From an uncultured Candidatus Saccharibacteria bacterium (GTDB taxonomy: Bacteria > Patescibacteriota > Minisyncoccia > Phycocordibacterales > JACOZG01), in NCBI GenBank assembly GCA_964648765.1, contig CAZYLF010000001.1, positions 293,797 through 357,796 of the forward strand: a DNA stretch of 64,000 nt. Reading direction: 5' to 3'. Shown one piece after another: positions 26,923-35,880 of this stretch. The notes beneath the pieces are model-generated. The model searched no databases, was not told the origin of the DNA, and saw only the letters and a list, made by a program, of their open reading frames with translations. A program made the translations under genes and the position numbers. Every line of letters starts with the position of its first letter. Position 1 is the first letter of the stretch.

Positions 26923-26981
26923 AAGTACCCTATTGTCTACATTAGTATCTTGTGATATAATAACTGGAGTTCTTTGCTAGA

Positions 26982-27333
26982 TGGTTGCTCTCTTTGGTGC
27001 GTAAGTACTAGAGGGGGAGGAAAGTCCGAACACAGCCCGCCTAAATGCGTAAGCTTTTGGTGGGTAAAACGGTAGCGGGTAATGCCCGTCGCCCGCCAAC
27101 ATCTGCGAAGTTGTGGCGGGTAGAGGTGCGAGCAGAAACGCCAAAGCCGAAAGGCCTAGGATCCCTTCGGGGATAGTCTCATCGAGAGGTGAGAATGAAA
27201 CGGCTAAATCCTTACTTCTGTGCAAGGCCGTATCCCGTCAAAATGCGAAAGCTTTTGTTGGGGAGTGCCGCTCGAGCCAAACAGTAATGCTTGGCCCAGA
27301 TAAATAATCATCCACGACAGAATTCGGCTTATC
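26982..27333 (+). ncRNA. rnpB: RNase P RNA (bacterial type A)
   Basis: P4 strands 'GGAGGAAAGTCCGAACAC' and 'ACAGAATTCGGCTTATCGG' with a GNRA-loop-rich body. The ends are approximate. Confidence 0.8.
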
Positions 27334-27403
27334 GGCAAAGAACTAAAATAATCAGAAAGTCCCTCGCTTCACGCGTGGGATTTTTTGATTTATAATATAG
27401 GAG

Positions 27404-29106: not shown

Positions 29107-30786
29107 ATGGTTGAAAAGGTTTTAAATTTGTTTAACCGTGAATGGAGTAGCCTAAATGAGGCTGCTTTTTTACTCGGTCTTTCAGCATTCCTTTCCCAAG
29201 TCCTTTCTCTTTTTAGAGATCGCTTACTTGCTGGTGCTTTCGGCGCTGGCCATGAACTTGATATTTATTACTCCGCTTTTCGTATCCCAGACATAATTTA
29301 TGTGTCAGTAGCCTCCTTGGTCTCGATTACCATTTTAATTCCGTTTATTATCCGTCATTTAGATAGTGACGATAAAAATGGAGCAAGAGAATTAATTAAT
29401 GGCGTTTTTACCCTTTTTTTTACTTTAATGATTGTGGTCGCGGTAGTGGCATTTATTTTTATGCCCTACTTAGCCCCACTAGTGGCACCAGGATTTGATC
29501 TTCCGTCCCAAGCTCATTTAATTGATTTAAGTAGGATTTTATTACTTTCACCAATCTTGCTTGGACTCTCAAACTTGTTTGGTAGCGTCACCCAATCTTT
29601 TAAAAGATTTTTTATTTATGCGCTAAGTCCAATTTTATATAACGTTGGTATTATTATTGGCATAGTTTATTTTTATCCAAGTCTCGGGCTTACCGGTTTG
29701 GTGTGGGGAGTAATTTTAGGCGCAGGGCTTCATTTGCTTGTTCAGGTTCCCACTGTACATTCATTAAAATTATTTCCTAAATTTAGTCTCAAAATCAATT
29801 GGAGTGAAATTAAGCGCCTCGTGGCCCTCTCGCTCCCCAGAACCTTTACTCTCTCTGTGCACCAAATCACCATTTTGGTGTTGGTGGCGCTGGCCTCACT
29901 TATGGATAAAGGTTCTATTGCGGTATTTAACTTTGCCTATAATTTGCAATCAGTGCCCTTGGCCATCGTTGGTTTGAGCTACTCTGTGGCCGCTTTTCCT
30001 ACTTTAGTTAAAATTTATAACAACGGTGATCGGCCACAATTTGTTACTCAAGTTTCAGACGCTTTGCGCTACATTGTTTTTTGGTCCATTCCGGCGATGG
30101 CAATTTTTATTGTTTTACGGGCCCAAATTGTGCGAGTAATTTTAGGTTCGGGAGAGTTTGATTGGTCTGACACGCGACTTACCGCCGCCGCCTTAGCTTG
30201 TTTTTCCATTTCTGTCATCGCTCAAAGTTTAATTTTGCTTTTTGTGCGAGCGTATTATGCAGCAGGCAAAACTAGCAAGCCATTAATCATAAACGTTGCA
30301 TCATCAATTTTTGTGGTTTTGCTCGCCTTCGGCTTAAACTCCTGGTATCAAGGTGCTAGTGAATTTCAGCAATTGGTGGAGGGTTGGCTACGTGTTGAAG
30401 CTGTTGGGGGGACGATTGTGCTTATTTTACCAATCGCTTTTTCACTCGGGATGTTACTTAATCTATTTTTATTCTGTTACTTTTTCCGAAAAGATTTTGG
30501 TAAATTTGGGACGAGAGTGATGCGTACTTTTTGGCAGGTATTTTTTGCCTCAATAATTGGCGCAGTGGCGAGTTACTTGCTTCTTAATGTATTCGACAAC
30601 TGGTTTGACTTAGACACATTTATTGGTATCTTGCTACAAGGGCTTTTGGCCGGTATGGGCGGAATTGCGGTAGGTTTTGGGATGCTCCGCCTAGCTAAGA
30701 GCCAAGAGTTAACAAGTATTGTTGAATCCCTGCGTAACCGTTTTTGGCAGACGCGCGTGGTGGCTGAATCTCCGGAAGAAATATGA
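29107..30786 (+). CDS. murJ: Lipid II flippase MurJ
   Basis: 14-TM MviN/MurJ pattern with a typical N-terminus 'AAFLLGLSAFLSQVLSLFRDRLLAGAFGAG'. Confidence 0.9.
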   Translation: MVEKVLNLFNREWSSLNEAAFLLGLSAFLSQVLSLFRDRLLAGAFGAGHELDIYYSAFRIPDIIYVSVASLVSITILIPFIIRHLDSDDKNGARELINGVFTLFFTLMIVVAVVAFIFMPYLAPLVAPGFDLPSQAHLIDLSRILLLSPILLGLSNLFGSVTQSFKRFFIYALSPILYNVGIIIGIVYFYPSLGLTGLVWGVILGAGLHLLVQVPTVHSLKLFPKFSLKINWSEIKRLVALSLPRTFTLSVHQITILVLVALASLMDKGSIAVFNFAYNLQSVPLAIVGLSYSVAAFPTLVKIYNNGDRPQFVTQVSDALRYIVFWSIPAMAIFIVLRAQIVRVILGSGEFDWSDTRLTAAALACFSISVIAQSLILLFVRAYYAAGKTSKPLIINVASSIFVVLLAFGLNSWYQGASEFQQLVEGWLRVEAVGGTIVLILPIAFSLGMLLNLFLFCYFFRKDFGKFGTRVMRTFWQVFFASIIGAVASYLLLNVFDNWFDLDTFIGILLQGLLAGMGGIAVGFGMLRLAKSQELTSIVESLRNRFWQTRVVAESPEEI

Positions 30787-32585
30787 ATTTAAAAAATATC
30801 AGAAACTTTTCAATTATTGCTCACATTGATCACGGCAAGTCGACCTTAGCTGACCGCTTGCTTGAGATCACCGGCACAATTGAGAAACGCAAAATGATGG
30901 AACAAGTGCTTGATAGCATGGAGCTTGAGCGTGAGCGCGGTATCACTATTAAGATGCAACCGGTGCGGATGAATTGGAATTATAAGGGAGAGGACTACGT
31001 TTTAAATTTAATCGACACGCCGGGACACATCGATTTTTCTTACGAAGTTTCGCGCTCGCTTAAAGCGGTGGAGGGGGTGATCCTTTTGGTTGATGCTACA
31101 AAAGGTGTGCAGGCGCAAACGATGTCTGTGCTCTCGATGGCGCGCGAGGCAGACTTAAAAATTATACCGGTAATTAATAAAATCGATTTGCCCGTGGCGC
31201 GTACCGAAGAAGTGATTGAAGAAATTGTGGAACTTTTAAATTGTCGTCGCGAGGATATTCTTAAAATTTCGGCCAAAACGGGTATGGGAGTTGAGGATTT
31301 ACTTAAGCGGGTTATAGACGTGGTGCCACCACCACAAGTGGAAACTAGTGACCCAAAAGGTAAACGGGCGCTGGTCTTCGACTTTGAATATTCAACCCAT
31401 CAGGGGATTATTGTTTACGTGCGGGTGTTTGACGGCGAAATTAATCGTCACGATAAATTAACTTTTACTGCGGCCGGCGAAACCTTCAGCGTGCTCTCTG
31501 TTGGCACCTTCCGCCCCACTAAAACCGAGAGTGATAAATTGGTGGCGGGGGAGATTGGTTATTTAGTCACAGGGATTAAAGAGCAAAGTCGCGCTCGCGT
31601 GGGTGACACGATTAATAATCCTAACTTTCCTTTACCCGCTTTCCCTGGCTACACTGAGCCTCGCCCGATGGTGTGGGCCGCAATTTATCCTAATAGCCAA
31701 AATGACTTCACTGTGCTTAAGCAAGCCCTGCAGCGTTTGAGTCTTTCGGATTCCTCGCTTTCATTTTCTGAAGAAGCGGCAAGCTCGCTCGGCAGAGGAT
31801 TTATTTGTGGGTTCTTAGGTTTGCTCCATCTAGAAATTATTACCGAGAGATTGAAGCGCGAATTTAATTTGGAACTCACAGTGACCTCACCCTCAATTAG
31901 TTACCAGATAATTGATAAAGCGACAGGTAAAGAAGAAACGATTGCTTCACCTCATCTTTTCCCTGAAAATTTAAAACAAGAGACAATTCTTGAACCTTGG
32001 GCGGAGGCCAATATTATTACACCGACCGCATACCTTGAAGTAATTTTGAAAATGCTAAATTCGCACGAGGCTTTGCCAATGCTAACCACAACCTTAAGTC
32101 ATTCTCGCTCCTCACTGACCATCCAATTGCCACTTCGAGAATTAATGCGAAACTTTTTTAATGAACTCAAAAGTATCTCCTCGGGCTACGCTTCGCTCTC
32201 TTACCACTTAATTGGTTTGCGCGAGGCTGATGTGGCTAAACTCGAGATTTTAATTACGGAAGAATTGGAACCAGCGCTCACGAGGATTGTGTCGCGCAGT
32301 CGGCTTGCCAAAGATGCGGAAGATTTAGTGGAACGTTTGAAGGAACTTTTGCCACGGCAACTTTTTACAATTAAAATTCAGGCCCAAGCTCTTGGGAGGA
32401 TAATTGCTTCGCGCTCTATCTCAGCAATGAAAAAGGACGTTACCGATTATCTCTATGGTGGTGATATCACGCGTAAAATGAAGCTCAGAGAGAAGCAAAA
32501 GAAAGGCAAAAAGAAGATGCAAGCGCGGGCGTCAATGAAGATTCCTCACGATGTGTTTGTGAAGTTGCTTGGTTCTAAAGAATAG
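30783..32585 (+). CDS. lepA: Elongation factor 4 (LepA)
   Basis: 'IRNFSIIAHIDHGKSTLADRLL' G-domain and a LepA-specific C-terminus. 4-nt overlap with murJ. Confidence 0.95.
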   Translation: MNLKNIRNFSIIAHIDHGKSTLADRLLEITGTIEKRKMMEQVLDSMELERERGITIKMQPVRMNWNYKGEDYVLNLIDTPGHIDFSYEVSRSLKAVEGVILLVDATKGVQAQTMSVLSMAREADLKIIPVINKIDLPVARTEEVIEEIVELLNCRREDILKISAKTGMGVEDLLKRVIDVVPPPQVETSDPKGKRALVFDFEYSTHQGIIVYVRVFDGEINRHDKLTFTAAGETFSVLSVGTFRPTKTESDKLVAGEIGYLVTGIKEQSRARVGDTINNPNFPLPAFPGYTEPRPMVWAAIYPNSQNDFTVLKQALQRLSLSDSSLSFSEEAASSLGRGFICGFLGLLHLEIITERLKREFNLELTVTSPSISYQIIDKATGKEETIASPHLFPENLKQETILEPWAEANIITPTAYLEVILKMLNSHEALPMLTTTLSHSRSSLTIQLPLRELMRNFFNELKSISSGYASLSYHLIGLREADVAKLEILITEELEPALTRIVSRSRLAKDAEDLVERLKELLPRQLFTIKIQAQALGRIIASRSISAMKKDVTDYLYGGDITRKMKLREKQKKGKKKMQARASMKIPHDVFVKLLGSKE

Positions 32586-32654
32586 TTTTGGACTACTGAA
32601 GAAGGGGAAAAGCGTATAGCGCCAACATGCCAAGAATGGTGATTATGCTAGCGA

Positions 32655-33110
32655 TTGTCCATACAACTTGAAGCTTTCTTCGGTGTTTTTTCTCAATCAT
32701 GGGCAAAAATATTAATTTTGATATATTATAAGCTTATAATGCTCGACTTTCAACCTAAAAGCTACTGGCGACGTTTGATCCACTCTAAAGTGTTTTTATT
32801 GCCAATGGCCATTTTTACGGTAGTGTTACTTAACGCGGTGTTTGGTTTGTATAATAAAAGTCGTGTGGCAAATCAGGCTTTAGAGATGGCGAGGTTGGAA
32901 GAGGGGCGCTTGGAGGCTAGGGCGAGCTATCTTGAGGCGGCCATTGGTGAGCTTGAGACTGACCGAGGCGTGGAGAAGGTGATTAGAGAAAAATTTGGCA
33001 TGGTGCGCCCTGGCGAAAGAGTAATTAATTTGGTTGAGGCAAAAGAGGCTACAGCAACACCACTTACCTCATCTAAAAAATCATTTTGGCAGAGGTGGAT
33101 CAGTGATTAA
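32655..33110 (+). CDS. FtsB/DivIC-like septum formation initiator (the likely true start is the internal ATG near 32742)
   Basis: TM helix followed by a coiled coil and the motif 'EKVIREKFGMVRPGERVINL'. Confidence 0.5.
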   Translation: MSIQLEAFFGVFSQSWAKILILIYYKLIMLDFQPKSYWRRLIHSKVFLLPMAIFTVVLLNAVFGLYNKSRVANQALEMARLEEGRLEARASYLEAAIGELETDRGVEKVIREKFGMVRPGERVINLVEAKEATATPLTSSKKSFWQRWISD

Positions 33111-33123
33111 AATATAATTAACA

Positions 33124-33224
33124 AAAGCGGGTATAGTTCCCGCCTAAAGCCCTGAGGATCGGGCATTAAGGCGGGCCCGCCTCCAATGTCTTTACTAAGA
33201 CTTTGGGCGGGTAGTGGTAGAATT
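33124..33224 (+). repeat. Structured ~90-nt repeat, copy A. It ends in the tRNA-like 5' fragment GGCGGGTAGTGGTAGAAT.
   Basis: Shares AGTTCCCGCC(T/C)AAAG...GGCGGGCCCGCC...CTTTGGGCGGGTAGTGGTAGAAT with copy B at 33567-33655. Contains nested hairpins. Confidence 0.6.
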
Positions 33225-33232
33225 ATTCAAGA

Positions 33233-33505
33233 ATGTTCTATGTTTACATTTTATTGTGTGAAGACACGAAGCGGAAGCGGAGTAAATTTTATATTGGCTC
33301 GACTAGTAATTTAAAAGAAAGGTTGGAGCAACATCGCAAGAAGTCAACTCAAACCACAAAAAGTTTTGATAAGCTAGCCTTAATTTACTACGAGGCCAGC
33401 CTGAACAAAACTGACACAAGAAAGCGTGAAATTCAATTGAAAACAGGCTTTGGTCGTGGTTATATTAACAGGAGGTTGGAAGAGTATTTAAAGAAGCGAG
33501 ATTAG
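33233..33505 (+). CDS. GIY-YIG nuclease family protein (90 aa)
   Basis: 'FYVYILLCEDTKR...FYIGSTSNLKERLEQH' GIY-YIG core. The last 10 nt overlap the tRNA-Gly 5' end. Confidence 0.75.
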   Translation: MFYVYILLCEDTKRKRSKFYIGSTSNLKERLEQHRKKSTQTTKSFDKLALIYYEASLNKTDTRKREIQLKTGFGRGYINRRLEEYLKKRD

Positions 33506-33566
33506 TTTAGTGGTAGGACGATTGCTTCCCAAGCAATAGGCGGGAGTTCGATTCTCCCATCTCGCA
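33496..33566 (+). tRNA. tRNA-Gly(CCC)
   Basis: Acceptor GCGAGAT/ATCTCGC. Anticodon stem ATTGC/GCAAT with loop TTCCCAA. T-arm GGGAGTTCGATTCTCCC. Confidence 0.8.
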
Positions 33567-33655
33567 TTACGAGAGTTAGTTCCCGCCCAAAGGCTTTACA
33601 GCCATAGAGGCGGGCCCGCCAGAATGCGGAGCTTTCGGCGGGTAGTGGTAGAATG
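33567..33655 (+). repeat. Structured ~90-nt repeat, copy B
   Basis: See copy A. Confidence 0.6.
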
Positions 33656-33704
33656 GTTGCTTCCCAAGCAACAGACACGAGTTCGATTCTCGTATCCCGC
33701 ACCA
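33638..33704 (+). pseudogene. tRNA-Gly(CCC)-like sequence with truncated D-arm and bulged acceptor stem, probably a tRNA remnant
   Basis: GCGGGTA + 11 nt + GTTGC-TTCCCAA-GCAAC + T-arm CGAGTTCGATTCTCG + TATCCCGC-ACCA. Too short for a canonical D-arm. Confidence 0.4.
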
Positions 33705-33707
33705 TTT

Positions 33708-33989
33708 ATGTCTCAAGTATTTAAGAAAGTTAAAGAGGATTTTGATTGCGGGCATTGCGGGGCCAGCGTAATTGGGAGTGGATATACAAATCATTGCCCG
33801 AAATGTTTGTGGAGCAAGCACGTGGATATTAATCCAGGTGATAGGGCGGAGGAGTGTGGTGGGTTAATGAAGCCGGAAAAAGTAGAAATGGAGAAGGGGG
33901 AATTTGTGATTGTTCATAAATGTGAAAAATGTGGTAAGGTAAAGCGATGTCGCGCCTCGCGCGGTGATGAAATAGGTGTGCCGCTGTAG
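33708..33989 (+). CDS. RNHCP-domain zinc-ribbon protein
   Basis: 'CGHCGAS...YTNHCPKCLWSKHVD...CEKCGK'. The 3' end overlaps the following tRNA by 10 nt. Confidence 0.6.
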   Translation: MSQVFKKVKEDFDCGHCGASVIGSGYTNHCPKCLWSKHVDINPGDRAEECGGLMKPEKVEMEKGEFVIVHKCEKCGKVKRCRASRGDEIGVPL

Positions 33990-34050
33990 TTCAATGGATA
34001 GAACAGTCCCGTCCTAAGGGATAGATACAGGTTCGATTCCTGTTGGCGGC
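33980..34050 (+). tRNA. tRNA-Arg(CCT)
   Basis: Acceptor GCCGCTG/TGGCGGC with 2 GU pairs. Anticodon loop GTCCTAA. T-arm ACAGGTTCGATTCCTGT. Confidence 0.65.
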
Positions 34051-34116
34051 AAAAATTGGCGAGTCAGGCGAGTGGGCCATCTAGAAAAATATTTTGGAAA
34101 AGGATAAAATTGTTTT

Positions 34117-35880
34117 ATGAATAATCCGCTAACTTACCTTTTCCGAAAAATGTGGGGGTATTCTCAAGGAAATCGCAAAAATGTAATTTTTTATATTGTG
34201 TTGTCAATTTTTGCAACACTGCTTTTGGCTTTTGAACCTTTAATTGTTGGGTTGTTCTTAAATACCATTCAAACCGAAGGTGTAACTAGAGAAGTTCTAC
34301 CCCACCTAATTTCAATTTTGAGCCTATTGTTTTTCCTTGAACTTGGTTTTTGGTCAACGCATGGACCATCACGAGTGATGGAAACTCGCAATGCATTTTT
34401 TGTTCGAAGAAACTATAAAAACTATCTTTTGGAAGGAACAATGGCTTTGCCGATAGAGTGGCATACCAACCATCATTCTGGGGATACTATTGATAAAATT
34501 GAGAAAGGAACAACAGCATTATTCAACTTTTCCGAGAGAACCTTTGAAATAATTCAGGGTGTTATCAGTTTAACTACTGCCTTTGTGGCCATGTTTGTTT
34601 TTGACCTGATTTCAGGTAGCGCGGCTTTAATAATTAGTCTTTTTACTTTTTATATTTTAACGCTATTTGATAAAAAACTCATTCCTGGATACAGAATAGT
34701 GAATCAGGTAGAGAATAGTATATCGGCCAAAATTTTTGATGCTCTAAGTAATGTAACAACAGTTATTATTCTTCGGGTAGAAGATCTGGTACTGAAATCA
34801 ATTGACACCTTTATTAAAAAACCACTTGATAGATTTCATTTGAATAATAAAATTAACGAATGTAAATGGTTCTCCGCTTCTTTGTTTGGGCGTATTGCGG
34901 TTATTGCTGTTGTGGGTATCTATCTTTTTTCCAAGGTTTCTTCAGGGGTAATTCTTGTGGGGACCGTATATATACTGTATGGATACGCGAATCAAATTCG
35001 TGATACTTTTTTTAAGTTTGCTTATTTATATAATGATATCGTTCGTTATAGGTCTTCGGTGAGTAATACAGAAGAACTTTCAAAAGATTTTCGACAAACA
35101 ATCCTAGTGGGTAAAAATCATCTACCTAATGAGTGGCAATCGCTTGAGATTGAGAAATTGTCCTTTTCTTATCATTCAGAAGAAGGGGCAGATCTCCATT
35201 TAGATAACGTTTCTATAAAAATTAAAAAAGGAGAGAGAATTGCCCTTATTGGAGAAAGTGGAGGTGGAAAAAGCACTTTTCTTAGAATTTTGCGAGATCT
35301 ATATCATCCCAAGTCACTTAGTCTTTCTGTAAACGGCGAACAAACATCAAAGGGTTTTGCATCAATTAGTGAGTCCATTTCCTTAATCCCCCAAGACCCA
35401 GAAATATTTGCGACGACCATAAGGGAAAACATTACATTGGGAGTTGAGTATAAAGATGAGCACATCCAAGTCTTTACAGATATGGCATGTATGACCCAAG
35501 TTATTGATCGTTTACCAAAAAAACTCGAATCTTCAATCGTGGAGAAGGGCGTTAATTTGAGCGGCGGAGAAAAGCAACGCCTCGCACTCTCCAGAGGACT
35601 TTTGGCTTCAGTCGACAAAGATATAATCCTTATGGATGAGCCAACAAGCAGTGTCGACTTTCAAAACGAGCTAGAGATTTTTAAGAATATTTTTCAAGCA
35701 TTTCCAAAACAGACAATTATTGCCTCAGTTCACAGACTTCACCTTTTGTCTCTTTTTGACTCAGTTTATTTTTTTGAAAATGGAAAAATAATTGCTTCTG
35801 GAACATTTGAAGAATTAAAAGAATCTTCATTGGAATTCCAAAAACTTTGGAAAAAATATATTGAAACTCGGGATGCATAG
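34117..35880 (+). CDS. ABC exporter, fused permease and ATPase (MsbA-like)
   Basis: 6 N-terminal TM helices. Walker A 'GESGGGKST', signature 'LSGGEKQRLALSRGL', Walker B 'ILMDEPTSS'. Confidence 0.85.
   Translation: MNNPLTYLFRKMWGYSQGNRKNVIFYIVLSIFATLLLAFEPLIVGLFLNTIQTEGVTREVLPHLISILSLLFFLELGFWSTHGPSRVMETRNAFFVRRNYKNYLLEGTMALPIEWHTNHHSGDTIDKIEKGTTALFNFSERTFEIIQGVISLTTAFVAMFVFDLISGSAALIISLFTFYILTLFDKKLIPGYRIVNQVENSISAKIFDALSNVTTVIILRVEDLVLKSIDTFIKKPLDRFHLNNKINECKWFSASLFGRIAVIAVVGIYLFSKVSSGVILVGTVYILYGYANQIRDTFFKFAYLYNDIVRYRSSVSNTEELSKDFRQTILVGKNHLPNEWQSLEIEKLSFSYHSEEGADLHLDNVSIKIKKGERIALIGESGGGKSTFLRILRDLYHPKSLSLSVNGEQTSKGFASISESISLIPQDPEIFATTIRENITLGVEYKDEHIQVFTDMACMTQVIDRLPKKLESSIVEKGVNLSGGEKQRLALSRGLLASVDKDIILMDEPTSSVDFQNELEIFKNIFQAFPKQTIIASVHRLHLLSLFDSVYFFENGKIIASGTFEELKESSLEFQKLWKKYIETRDA

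Follow-up and report, generated by a model that had tools for sequence, protein, structure and literature searches.

The window, the whole 64,000-nucleotide stretch of DNA analysed here, contains downstream of divIC an insert of about 570 bases (33138-33707) made up of a palindromic element designated E, a GIY-YIG open reading frame (ORF) and its own tRNA-Gly gene. A promoter-like site, TTGGCA and TAAAAT separated by a 16-nt spacer (33086-33113, + strand; consensus scan, 10/12 matches), precedes the start of the resident tRNA. Its spacer is kept in the relatives L083-L086, and judging from its position and sequence the site may be the sole plausible driver of the whole array.

What is left of the resident tRNA-Gly(CCC) at the left boundary is its 5′ end, nt 1-12 (GCGGGTATAGTT; 33127-33138, + strand), which is identical to relatives at 11 of 12 nucleotides and is as far from divIC as the intact tRNA is in L083-L087. 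The first copy of the palindrome, E_A (33139-33211, 73 nt, not assigned to a strand), is a dyad-symmetric double hairpin delimited by covariance model R1 that occupies the D-loop position of this relic. It is followed by the tRNA remnant TAGTGGTAGAAT (33212-33223, + strand), which comprises the D-loop and the 3′ strand of the D-stem and aligns to nt 13-25 of the two tRNAs farther downstream (tRNA#1 and tRNA#2). The gene for a stand-alone GIY-YIG nuclease of 90 amino acids (33233-33505, + strand; Pfam PF01541), of the minimal SLX1/UPF0213-like type, runs directly into an intact tRNA-Gly(CCC), tRNA#1 (33496-33566, + strand), which is called by ARAGORN, scores 69.5 bits in Rfam and is presumed to be the functional replacement. 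As the initial annotation had noted for the ORF and the canonical tRNA between the repeats, the two genes overlap by 10 nt: the last 10 nt of the ORF are nt 1-10 of the tRNA, and the stop codon TAG is nt 8-10. Beyond tRNA#1 are found a degenerate 5′ tRNA remnant (CGAGAGTTAGTT; 33570-33581, + strand) that aligns with nt 2-13 of tRNA#1, the second double-hairpin copy, E_B (33582-33642, 61 nt, likewise without assigned strand; covariance model R1), and the 3′ part of a second tRNA-Gly(CCC) (33643-33704, + strand). The right boundary is marked by an RNHCP gene (33708-33989, + strand; Pfam RNHCP, 2.2e-27). This gene overlaps a tRNA-Arg in the same manner, so that a stop codon within a tRNA is not unique to the GIY-YIG ORF.

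The second tRNA had been described as a D-armless molecule with a bulged acceptor. By alignment it consists of nt 14-76 of a tRNA-Gly(CCC) (33643-33701) followed by an encoded CCA (33702-33704), its D-loop interrupted by E_B, and it would be non-functional as it stands. ARAGORN does not call this interrupted tRNA at its default threshold, and Rfam gives 33638-33701 a score of 35.7 bits (cut-off 29) only with the help of GCGGG taken from the E_B end. The 3′ part shares 83% identity with tRNA#1 over 59 nt and matches the GCGGGAT-type tRNA-Gly of L088 exactly in the T-arm and the 3′ strand of the acceptor; with neither upstream 5′ piece does it form more than 5 of the 7 acceptor pairs. The outer pieces belong to different tRNA types, the 5′ piece resembling the resident allele of close relatives and the 3′ piece a different tRNA-Gly type; they are not the two halves of one gene. 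E occupies a loop position, bordered by D-stem nt 12/13 and the D-loop. When 33127-33139 is joined to 33644-33704, ARAGORN can call the product as a tRNA-Gly(CCC), which has mismatches at 6:67 and 7:66. Other spliced constructs gave no tRNA; only the upstream 5′ piece together with the downstream 3′ part does so.

The palindromic element and the nuclease

With its tRNA-derived flanks, the repeat unit extends over 33134-33223 and 33577-33654, the two copies sharing 65 identities in 90 columns of a gapped alignment. The motifs GGCGGGCCCGCC and GGCGGGTAGTGGTAGAAT occur exactly twice each in the 64 kb, and at least two matches were obtained in 0 of 100 shuffles. E_A and E_B each fold as two adjacent hairpins on either strand (fold z-scores -3.9 to -6.5), which upholds the earlier report of a hairpin-rich repeat of about 90 nt present twice. 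As DNA, E_A folds at -24.3 kcal/mol (z -6.0) and E_B with a z-score of -3.9. Covariance model R1 scores E_A at 57.3 bits on the + strand and 57.6 on the - strand, and E_B at 65.1 and 56.4 bits. Across copies of E, which range from 55 to 99 nt, the stems covary with compensatory changes in 11 of 20 stem pairs, hairpin 1 has an invariant A.A mismatch and hairpin 2 an invariant T.T mismatch, and G-T wobbles are rare (26/2292 stem pairs). A double E measures about 60 nt, a single hairpin (H) about 30 nt. A cloverleaf-like fold with paired outer ends and a central hairpin was rejected, as each hairpin covaries alone. The stems of hairpins 1 and 2 are often unlike within a single copy (e.g., L061 and L009). 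An Rfam scan of 32500-34500 with E-values up to 10 returned tRNAs and noise only, and no family for E. A function at the RNA level is unlikely because the element is the same on both strands, contains few G-T wobbles and lies in frame in essential mRNAs. E may be a binding site of the nuclease, its cleavage site, or a block on re-cleavage.

Copies of E are not confined to such cassettes. In an unbiased metagenome sample, 16 of 25 full copies have no GIY-YIG gene nearby. Copies lie in frame in genes for prepilin peptidase, uL23 (twice), a YchF-like GTPase, a release factor and other proteins, and single hairpins are found in DnaG, MurA and GrpE. One intergenic copy (L103) lies between 13-nt direct repeats, and two copies in one genome (L005, 774-838 and 2649-2718) have common loop sequences; solo copies show no consistent target motif or target-site duplication. 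The nuclease gene is physically linked to about one third to one half of the sampled E and H copies, and GIY-YIG is the only gene associated with E. Since 16 of the 25 sampled copies lack it and many are in housekeeping genes, E itself may be what moves, with the nuclease as its partner. E is thus a dispersed palindrome of the kind represented by MITEs and Rickettsia palindromic elements, in-frame insertions in protein genes included. The proposal that the repeat serves as a tRNA leader or promoter does not hold for an element that is inserted in a D-loop and is dispersed, also in frame, among protein genes.

The nuclease ORF matches Pfam GIY-YIG (PF01541) with 48.4 bits (cut-off 22.6; E-value 1.1e-12), and Y5, Y20, G22, R30, H34 and E66 are invariant among 29 homologs. 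Its AlphaFold2 model (pLDDT 90) has the order beta-beta-alpha-beta-alpha-alpha, and the top fold matches are all GIY-YIG proteins, which places it in the GIY-YIG superfamily. With Y5, Y20, R30, H34 and E66 retained in a confidently modelled fold, the enzyme looks active. Profile matches to 1zg2 (6.9e-6), 1ywl (2.6e-4) and SLX1 (0.013-0.03) come ahead of I-TevI (0.2), and Foldseek places 1zg2 and At-HIGLE, an SLX1 homolog, on top. The alignment of the 29 homologs has no invariant Asn. By sequence and model the protein appears to belong to the stand-alone Slx1-like/UPF0213 clade, to which its similarity is distant. No NCBIfam family reaches its cut-off, and TIGR01453, the group I intron endonuclease family, scores 24 bits against a cut-off of 56. 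Past the catalytic core the model contains a single helix (residues 72-89), with no further domain and no DNA-binding module; the linker and C-terminal DNA-binding module of I-TevI and Seg-type enzymes thus appear to be absent. This is no classical homing endonuclease but a 90-aa minimal domain nearest UPF0213/SLX1 that carries no DNA-binding extension. A C-terminal KTGFGRGYxxRRL motif is peculiar to the nuclease family studied here. A phage origin was rejected, no relative having been found among the viral contigs of IMG/VR.

Insertion polymorphism and recurrence in Patescibacteria

Five close relatives (L083-L087; DivIC 89-91% identical) have a single intact tRNA-Gly(CCC), spaced from divIC as in the window, and contain neither E nor a GIY-YIG gene there. 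L083 aligns to 29767-33137 of the window at 86.5% identity, the alignment ending at tRNA nt 11, and in blastn the match of L211 and L212 starts at 33708, the ATG of the RNHCP gene, at 87% identity. Because homology to the relatives ends at 33137 and resumes at 33708, these alignments indicate that 33138-33707 is an insertion or a replacement. As expected of homing, presence/absence polymorphism is combined with co-conversion, the tRNA past the breakpoint being of a different type. The ancestral allele is an uninterrupted tRNA without any repeat copy, and deletion of 33225-33655 would therefore not restore it, contrary to what had been proposed. The contigs of the relatives end near the locus. 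In L087 a serine recombinase island, a separate element, is present at the 3′ end of the tRNA.

The same architecture recurs widely. A protein search gathered 203 protein clusters of the nuclease family, and a scan of GTDB species representatives gave 382 confirmed sites. The stop codon of the ORF lies inside a tRNA in 60 of 80 other GTDB loci with homologs, at an offset of -9 in 44 of the 60, which makes it nt 8-10 of the tRNA; in seven more of the 80, the ORF lies within 14 nt of a tRNA. The tRNA joined to the ORF is mostly Gly(CCC). In 74 of 81 loci, E precedes the ATG by 6-67 nt, and in most of these it is followed by some 4-12 nt of tRNA and then by the ORF linker. Use of the CAAGG remnant as a Shine-Dalgarno sequence was dismissed, its spacing to the ATG being too variable.

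To the left of E, the tRNA fragment breaks off in the anticodon loop at 30 loci and in the D-loop at 28. Of 47 cases that could be aligned, 27 have a fragment that matches the 5′ part of the downstream tRNA without a difference; the duplication begins at tRNA nt 1, with further identity of only 0-4 nt in 25 of the 27, as expected of recombination limited to tRNA homology. Outer 5′ and 3′ pieces of different tRNA types occur also in L075, and short 5′ remnants left of a downstream E in 12 other loci. Paralogous copies stand beside different tRNAs within one contig (L005, L047, L068 and L074), and two loci without an ORF (L175 and L126) consist of a 5′ fragment, E, a remnant and a full tRNA. Nearest neighbours in the nuclease phylogeny share their insertion class in 73% of cases vs 49% expected; this association is only moderate, and the idea that the nuclease sequence fixes insertion in the D-loop or the anticodon loop was not retained.

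Pairs of E vary in their likeness. They are near-identical in L070 and L075, and mosaic in L028, where hairpin 1 is identical and hairpin 2 unlike. A large target-site duplication by staggered cuts would fit L070 and L075 but not the window pair (65/90). The pair of L004 is visibly more divergent than that of the window and unlike a staggered-cut duplication. Campbell-type integration of a circle via E was likewise rejected, as it predicts matching outer pieces, which is false in the window and in L075.

Comparison with known systems

Cassettes of double hairpin, nuclease and tRNA-Gly are a widespread family of which we found no description in the searchable literature. The free-standing GIY-YIG homing endonuclease SegB of phage T4 is encoded within the tRNA gene cluster of T4; it recognises a motif conserved in tRNA genes and takes neighbouring tRNA genes with it (PMC2330249). 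The two systems have in common a GIY-YIG gene among tRNA genes that is present or absent in relatives; SegB spreads with adjacent tRNAs by gene conversion (PMC2330249), as the cassette presumably would. SegB is, however, a full-size Seg-type phage enzyme without tRNA fusion, palindrome or relic tRNA fragments, whereas the cassette encodes a 90-aa SLX1-like minimal domain in a cellular genome, with its stop codon within a tRNA. The best sequence and fold matches, the UPF0213/Slx1-like proteins 1zg2 and 1ywl, share with it a size of about 90-100 aa, the lack of an auxiliary domain and the lack of a conserved C-terminal Asn (PMC1564403). This stand-alone family is described as mostly inherited vertically and has a predicted role in repair (Dunin-Horkawicz et al., 2006; PMC1564403); neither a tRNA fusion nor a flanking palindrome is reported for it, and the similarity is distant (profile E-value 7e-6). 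In the rRNA genes of CPR bacteria, GIY-YIG ORFs occur in insertions that are neither group I nor group II introns (PMC11270868). These share with the cassette the phylum and the position of a GIY-YIG gene within a structural RNA gene, but the study concerns rRNA genes only and describes no tRNA genes, hairpins or palindromes (PMC11270868).

The closest parallels to E are short palindromes. Rickettsia palindromic elements and prokaryotic MITEs are selfish and tolerated, and are found in frame in unrelated housekeeping genes and in RNA genes (PMC10969869). E and H differ in their length (30-95 nt vs ~150 nt), in having one or two GC-rich hairpins with A.A/T.T mismatches, in their occurrence in Patescibacteria and in their link to a nuclease. 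Mitochondrial genomes harbour the Allomyces double-hairpin elements, yeast GC clusters and Neurospora GC palindromes flanking tRNA genes (cited in PMC2800124). They resemble E in being GC-rich double hairpins of AT-rich genomes, near tRNA genes and with evidence of mobility, and differ in being organellar and in their sequences. To our knowledge, no conserved ORF-tRNA fusion accompanies them.

Replacement of a displaced gene segment also has precedents. A mobile GIY-YIG ORF in the Allomyces atp6 gene brings a duplicate of the gene end with it, the former piece persisting as a relic. Both there and in the cassette an endonuclease ORF is combined with a replacement gene piece, the relic being the 3′ end of a gene in Allomyces vs a 5′ tRNA piece here. 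Integrative elements targeted to tRNA genes bring along a copy of the displaced tRNA segment, usually duplicate the 3′ part, encode a tyrosine or serine integrase and measure kilobases. Like the cassette, they insert within a tRNA gene and regenerate an intact tRNA from an element-borne duplicate. In contrast, the cassette duplicates the 5′ part, is about 0.4-0.6 kb long and lacks an integrase; the 570-bp insert of the window contains only the 90-aa ORF and one tRNA, and no tyrosine or serine integrase. In REPIN-RAYT systems, the RAYTs are HUH Y1 transposases, and the REPINs are extragenic and abundant. Here too, a single nuclease or transposase gene is flanked by palindromes that it supposedly mobilises and that form hairpin doublets, but the enzyme is GIY-YIG rather than HUH, copy number is low and copies lie within genes, so that the likeness is one of analogy only.

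Interpretation of the cassette

We regard 33138-33707, with a probability of roughly 60%, as a selfish cassette that invaded and partly replaced the resident tRNA-Gly(CCC) downstream of divIC and that spreads in a homing-like manner. Its unit would comprise E, placed at a loop of the tRNA, then a few tRNA nucleotides, the 90-aa nuclease gene and a complete tRNA-Gly whose first 10 nt supply the final codons and the stop codon of the nuclease. The promoter of the resident tRNA would transcribe the whole array. The nuclease presumably makes the initiating cut, breaking DNA at a putative position in or beside a tRNA gene, and repair would then copy the cassette, using tRNA sequence as homology arms. 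Upstream, the invaded tRNA would leave its 5′ piece as a relic, and the cassette-borne copy would restore an intact tRNA, because of which insertion would not be lethal. E_B with the 3′ 59 nt of another tRNA-Gly may be the relic of an earlier or nested event; the two-E layout of the window is unexplained by a single simple homing event. Of the homing-type footprint proposed in the initial annotation, the mobile-type GIY-YIG insertion in a tRNA-Gly gene and the replacement tRNA it carries are borne out by the empty alleles and by the same architecture in dozens of genomes; the deletion product, the leader and the classical enzyme are not.

Several points weigh against homing. The restored tRNA is intact and without E, and an enzyme that cuts plain tRNA-Gly would cut its own host copy, a problem of immunity. 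The predicted protein has no DNA-binding domain and seems to group with the structure-specific SLX1/UPF0213 nucleases, versions without the ORF exist (L175 and L126), and the nuclease phylogeny tracks the insertion site only loosely. An alternative, for which we would allow perhaps one chance in four, is a transposable system of nuclease and palindrome. The H and E hairpins would be mobile in the way of MITEs, REPINs and Rickettsia palindromic elements, an SLX1-like GIY-YIG enzyme would cut the extruded hairpins, and E with the ORF would be the autonomous form; the link to tRNAs would arise because only tRNA-regenerating insertions survive and because the tRNA promoter ensures expression. The position of E beside the ORF start in 74 of 81 loci agrees with such a system, as do the dyad symmetry of E, whose strands fold alike with conserved mismatches and compensatory changes, and the structure-specific activity of the nearest solved relatives (SLX1, HIGLE and UPF0213). 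So do the dispersed solo copies of E and H in frame in several protein genes, the 13-nt direct repeat flanking the L103 copy and the loop sequences shared by the L005 copies. GIY-YIG enzymes, however, hydrolyse DNA without a covalent intermediate, which would leave joining to host repair; most ORFs are flanked by E on a single side, E is present in few copies (two in 64 kb) and there is no consistent target-site duplication. Transposition of palindromes alone also leaves the ORF stop inside the tRNA in 60 of 80 loci unexplained.

In a further explanation, which we consider improbable, the GIY-YIG protein is a domesticated host factor, E its operator or 5′-UTR element and the tRNA fragments debris of tandem duplication, nothing being mobile now. 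In its favour, E is always placed between the putative tRNA promoter and the ATG, as an operator or leader should be, its dyad symmetry would suit a dimeric DNA-binding protein, the protein family is well conserved and the RNHCP gene shows a comparable tRNA overlap. A host factor fits poorly with presence/absence among close relatives at a precise breakpoint within the tRNA, with paralogous copies by different tRNAs in single contigs, with outer tRNA pieces of foreign origin and with E inside coding sequences far from any such gene, and the covariation of its stems favours base pairing over a fixed protein-binding sequence. It is very unlikely that E is a true tRNA intron or the tRNA a split one, with E or 33139-33642 removed from RNA to leave functional outer pieces. 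E does sit exactly at loop positions, of the kind occupied by archaeal tRNA introns and split tRNAs (PMC10714607), and the outer pieces join to an ARAGORN-callable tRNA; yet that join is mismatched at 6:67 and 7:66 and its halves come from different tRNA types. Of the 74 loci that have E upstream, most lack a 3′ exon, since the tRNA sequence behind E gives way to the ORF linker after only about 4-12 nt. E, at 55-99 nt, falls short of the size of a group I or II intron (a group I ribozyme core takes about 200 nt or more) and matches no Rfam intron family, its toleration in frame in essential mRNAs implies that it is not an efficient signal for RNA cleavage or splicing, and the empty alleles show that it is not ancestral. 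The genome is bacterial (LepA, DivIC and class A RNase P RNA), with relatives in the Patescibacteria, and covariation describes two self-contained hairpins rather than pairing across the junction, which argues against archaeal-type introns. Least probable of all is a chimeric assembly of two tRNA-Gly loci: repeated tRNA and E sequences do break assemblers, and the relatives' contigs end nearby, but two Logan assemblies, independent of each other (SRR14271335 and SRR14271331), contain the identical arrangement, an NCBI record likewise has the protein, on a 553-kb contig, and dozens of independent MAGs show this architecture too.

A broader and more tentative proposal, about which we are rather doubtful, is that minimal SLX1-like GIY-YIG enzymes and double hairpins constitute a previously unrecognised class of prokaryotic mobile elements. 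Structure-specific cutting of extruded hairpins or of tRNA-gene loops would drive two processes, in which cassettes home into tRNA genes and hairpins lacking an ORF spread to RNase P RNA and, in frame, to protein genes. If this were so, the tRNA-Gly genes of Patescibacteria would evolve by cassette replacement and not by descent. Patescibacteria have tiny genomes in which tRNA genes are usually single-copy, and for this reason a parasite that lives within an essential tRNA gene and pays with a replacement tRNA would be a striking solution. Should homing-like spread of the cassette hold, it would give a concrete role to the otherwise function-less bacterial SLX1/UPF0213 nucleases, explain very unlike tRNA-Gly sequences among close relatives, and make tRNA genes portable homology for gene flow between species. 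It would also offer a bacterial counterpart to the Rickettsia palindromic and mitochondrial double-hairpin elements, with a candidate enzyme that is directly testable. For genome annotation, cassette loci yield false 'pseudo-tRNA' calls and mis-started ORFs.

An interrupted tRNA-Gly locus and its empty alleles

On the forward strand, the locus follows LepA (30783-32585) and a DivIC-like gene (32739-33110). It opens with GCGGGTATAGTT (33127-33138), nucleotides 1-12 of a tRNA-Gly, which runs into a 73-nt copy (E_A, 33139-33211) of a dyad-symmetric palindromic element, here termed E. Behind E_A lie TAGTGGTAGAAT (33212-33223), which represents a D-loop and the 3' strand of a D-stem, a 9-nt linker (33224-33232), and a GIY-YIG ORF of 90 amino acids (33233-33505). 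The ORF end overlaps an intact tRNA-Gly(CCC), tRNA#1 (33496-33566), followed by TTA (33567-33569), a degenerate 5' tRNA remnant CGAGAGTTAGTT (33570-33581), a second, 61-nt copy of the element (E_B, 33582-33642), and nucleotides 14-76 plus CCA of another tRNA-Gly(CCC) (33643-33704). An RNHCP gene (33708-33989) and a tRNA-Arg(CCT) (33979-34052) come next on the same strand. Alignment of tRNA#1 with both interrupted copies places E between D-stem nucleotides 12/13 and the D-loop. The repeat recognized in the initial annotation is real, its diagnostic motifs occurring exactly twice in 64 kb, a count reached by no shuffle, and it is E together with short tRNA flanks.

ARAGORN calls tRNA#1, which scores 69.5 bits with Rfam, and does not call the second copy at its default threshold. 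Rfam does match 33638-33701 (35.7 bits, cut-off 29), but only by borrowing GCGGG of the E_B end as acceptor strand and passing over the 5' D-arm half. A tRNA-Gly(CCC) can be called when 33127-33139 is joined to 33644-33704, although pairs 6:67 and 7:66 are mismatched, and comparison with relatives traces the two pieces to different tRNA types. We take tRNA#1 to be the working gene and the remaining tRNA pieces to be relic.

The suspected insertion has empty-site alleles. Five contigs (L083-L087) encode DivIC homologs of 89-91% identity and carry, directly after divIC and with the same spacer as in the window, a single uninterrupted tRNA-Gly(CCC), GCGGGTATAGTATAGTGGTAATATGAGACCTTCCCAAGGTTTAGACGGGGGTTCGATCCCCCCTACCCGCACCA; these contigs contain neither E nor a GIY-YIG gene. 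L083 aligns with window positions 29767-33137 at 86.5% identity, and the alignment ends at tRNA nucleotide 11, the E_A junction. On the right side, same-sample contigs with a 93%-identical RNHCP gene align from exactly 33708 on. As homology ends at 33137 and restarts at 33708, the segment 33138-33707 belongs to the window lineage alone. What remains of the resident tRNA is a 12-nt stump, 33127-33138. The 3' piece at 33643-33701 is not the other half of that gene; a GCGGGAT-type tRNA-Gly(CCC) in a more distant relative (L088) has the same T-arm and acceptor strand. Since the window contains no 3' half able to pair with GCGGGTA, the relatives' intact gene is not derivable from the window state, and the direction of change, from empty to filled, is clear. 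The site downstream of divIC is a general, variable hot spot in relatives.

The RNHCP stop codon TAG (33987-33989) coincides with nucleotides 8-10 of tRNA-Arg(CCT), the overlap geometry of the GIY-YIG/tRNA-Gly pair, and this region is kept in relatives L211/L212; ORF/tRNA overlaps may be a general trait of these compact genomes. Public gene calls lengthen RNHCP to 121 amino acids (33624-33989), starting within E_B and the tRNA relic, but the Pfam match, like the homology with relatives, favours a start at the ATG at 33708 (93 amino acids). A large serine-recombinase island lies directly after the tRNA in L087 (1168-2646), AbiEi/AbiEii lie between divIC and the tRNA in L088 (1424-2715), and ParE-like toxin-antitoxin genes precede RNHCP in L211-L214 (L211: 911-1442). 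Several independent contigs (L083-L085) end at a GC-rich palindrome, cgtgggcggctcgcagagccgcccattgattt, 157 nt after divIC, and L034 has a similar motif downstream of tRNA-Gly; the palindrome may be a further repeat family or an assembly-breaking polymorphism.

The palindrome, ORF and tRNA as a module

Folding of the repeat, proposed at the outset, yields two adjacent hairpins supported by covariation, with compensatory changes in 11 of 20 stem pairs. The consensus is tCCGCCaAAAGc-loop-gCATTtaGGCGGa for the first hairpin and cCCGCCnaAATGc-loop-CTTTtGGCGGg for the second. Within a single copy the stems are often unlike each other, which excludes a fold pairing the two ends of E. The consensus also reads the same on the reverse strand, including a near-invariant A.A mismatch in hairpin 1 and T.T in hairpin 2; as DNA, one strand folds as well as the other, and G-T wobbles are rare in the stems (26/2292 pairs). 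The equivalence of the strands and the scarcity of wobbles suggest that E acts at the DNA level, as extruded hairpins or a cruciform.

The GIY-YIG protein has 203 relatives (E-values up to 1e-3), and where a source is named, the label reads Patescibacteria, a candidate phylum within that group or just 'bacterium'. A scan of GTDB species representatives confirmed 382 sites, 80 of which were examined. The ORF stops within the tRNA at 60 of these 80 loci, either at offset -9, where the TAG stop is tRNA nucleotides 8-10 (44 loci), or deeper, at offsets -13 to -22 (16 loci). It ends 1-14 nt before the tRNA at seven more and within an interrupted tRNA 5' piece at four, and it reaches the contig end at the tRNA start at another four. 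Of the 63 loci that combine a linked tRNA with an E upstream (the window and 62 of the 80), 56 have tRNA-Gly (CCC 43, TCC 10, GCC 3) and seven have a tRNA for Ile, Val, Thr, Ala or Arg.

A covariance model built from 16 copies of E detected 94 copies in the window and the 80 loci. E ends 6-67 nt upstream of the ATG in 74 of the 81 loci; 15 of 17 other copies lie downstream of the ORF, mostly just beyond the tRNA, one lies 1.4 kb upstream of the ORF (L005), and the last, a weak match, overlaps the start of an ORF (L050). To the left of E, the tRNA fragment breaks off in the anticodon loop in 30 loci (..TTCC-E-CAAGG..) and in the D-loop in 28. To the right there are usually ~4-12 nt more of tRNA, an AT-rich linker and the ATG. 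At 47 loci the left fragment could be aligned with the intact tRNA downstream, and at 27 of them it repeats the 5' part of that tRNA without a difference; the duplicated stretch starts at tRNA nucleotide 1, and in 25 of the 27 the identity extends only 0-4 nt beyond it. A second E lies downstream in thirteen loci, the window among them, in the order short 5' remnant, E, tRNA 3' part. The outer tRNA halves match perfectly in L004 and are of different types in L075 and the window; L017 shows tandem repetition of the unit. The order of E, ORF and tRNA is a family trait.

In four loci (L005, L047, L068, L074) the GIY-YIG gene is accompanied, at a distance of 0.3-1.5 kb, by a more divergent paralog with 33-49% identity to the query. 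In three of the four, a further tRNA (Thr, Leu, Ser) begins 68-107 nt beyond the end of this paralog, which suggests several cassettes per tRNA cluster. E directly follows the 3' end of tRNA-Pro(TGG), ahead of the GIY-YIG ORF, in L037, L060 and L082; no tRNA follows the ORF in L037 and L060. TPA assembly records give many module-carrying MAGs (L003-L082) the title 'uncultured Gammaproteobacteria', 'Pseudomonadales' or 'Bdellovibrionales', probably through automatic mislabelling.

A small nuclease and a proposed homing-type mechanism

The nuclease looks intact. Its family has invariant residues Y5, Y20, G22, R30, H34 and E66 and a C-terminal motif, LKTGFGRGYxxRRL, specific to it. The best PDB profile matches are UPF0213 BH0048 (6.9e-6), EF2693 and SLX1, with I-TevI ranking behind, and Foldseek places BH0048 and the Arabidopsis SLX1 homolog HIGLE on top. 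The protein belongs to the minimal prokaryotic Slx1-like type of Dunin-Horkawicz et al., which lacks a conserved C-terminal Asn (PMC1564403). IMG/VR viral contigs yielded no relative. Cleavage by RNase P at 33496 would take away the nuclease stop codon, which would limit expression. The initial interpretation, insertion into a tRNA-Gly with a replacement tRNA, is partly supported, with the empty sites in its favour; a DNA-binding extension, named at the outset as a point to check, is not seen, as the confident AlphaFold2 model (pLDDT 90) consists of a GIY-YIG core and one C-terminal helix, with no separate DNA-binding domain.

Five points are established: an insertion polymorphism with its breakpoint inside a tRNA, a conserved module of E, ORF and tRNA, duplications bounded by the tRNA 5' end, foreign-tRNA relics, and a nuclease that looks intact. 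Homing-type gene conversion is the simplest process that would yield them all. A break would arise in a tRNA gene and be repaired from a donor carrying a 5' part, E, remnant, ORF and full tRNA, with homology between donor and target confined to the tRNA itself; the upstream flank would consequently stay local, and the ORF would always adjoin a tRNA 5' end. An experimental precedent is phage T4 SegB (PMC2330249), a GIY-YIG enzyme that makes use of a conserved motif in tRNA genes and causes adjacent tRNA genes to spread. The two-E layout of the window needs more than one event and, since the restored tRNA is uninterrupted, homing leaves self-cleavage unexplained. A structure-guided cut would be an attractive candidate mode of action, because E sits at hairpin-loop positions of tRNA genes and the enzyme resembles structure-specific nucleases.

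Full-text searches of the searchable literature returned no description of the module. The nearest report describes CPR rRNA genes with non-intron insertions that contain GIY-YIG ORFs, and leaves tRNAs and hairpins unmentioned (PMC11270868). The module unites known kinds, a free-standing endonuclease cassette and a palindromic selfish element, and there is a fair chance of something more novel.

Palindromes without the nuclease

The main rival to homing by the nuclease takes the hairpins as the mobile agent and the nuclease as their partner. An exact-pattern scan of JGI metagenomes with one hairpin as query returned at least 120 loci; among the matches listed, full E occurs in 25, nine adjoining a GIY-YIG gene and tRNA and 16 not. 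Solo copies, among the same listed matches, lie in frame in a prepilin peptidase (69 nt), in ribosomal protein uL23 on two contigs (63 and 66 nt, near the N-terminus), and in a YchF-like GTPase, a release factor and two other long ORFs (L132, L124, L130, L176, L177, L154, L203), as do single hairpins in DnaG, MurA and GrpE (L133, L185, L194). Such in-frame copies add roughly 10-23 residues to housekeeping proteins, a behaviour that parallels that of Rickettsia palindromic elements (PMC10969869) and mitochondrial hairpin elements (PMC2800124). A 13-nt direct repeat borders one intergenic copy (L103), and at a tRNA-Arg (L175) and a tRNA-Val (L126) the order 5' fragment, E, remnant, full tRNA occurs without the ORF. 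In the window itself, a class A RNase P RNA (26969-27347), missed at default thresholds because its Rfam score of 96.2 bits falls just below the gathering score of 100, contains two hairpins (~27035-27064 and ~27232-27262) that are almost identical to hairpin 2 of E.
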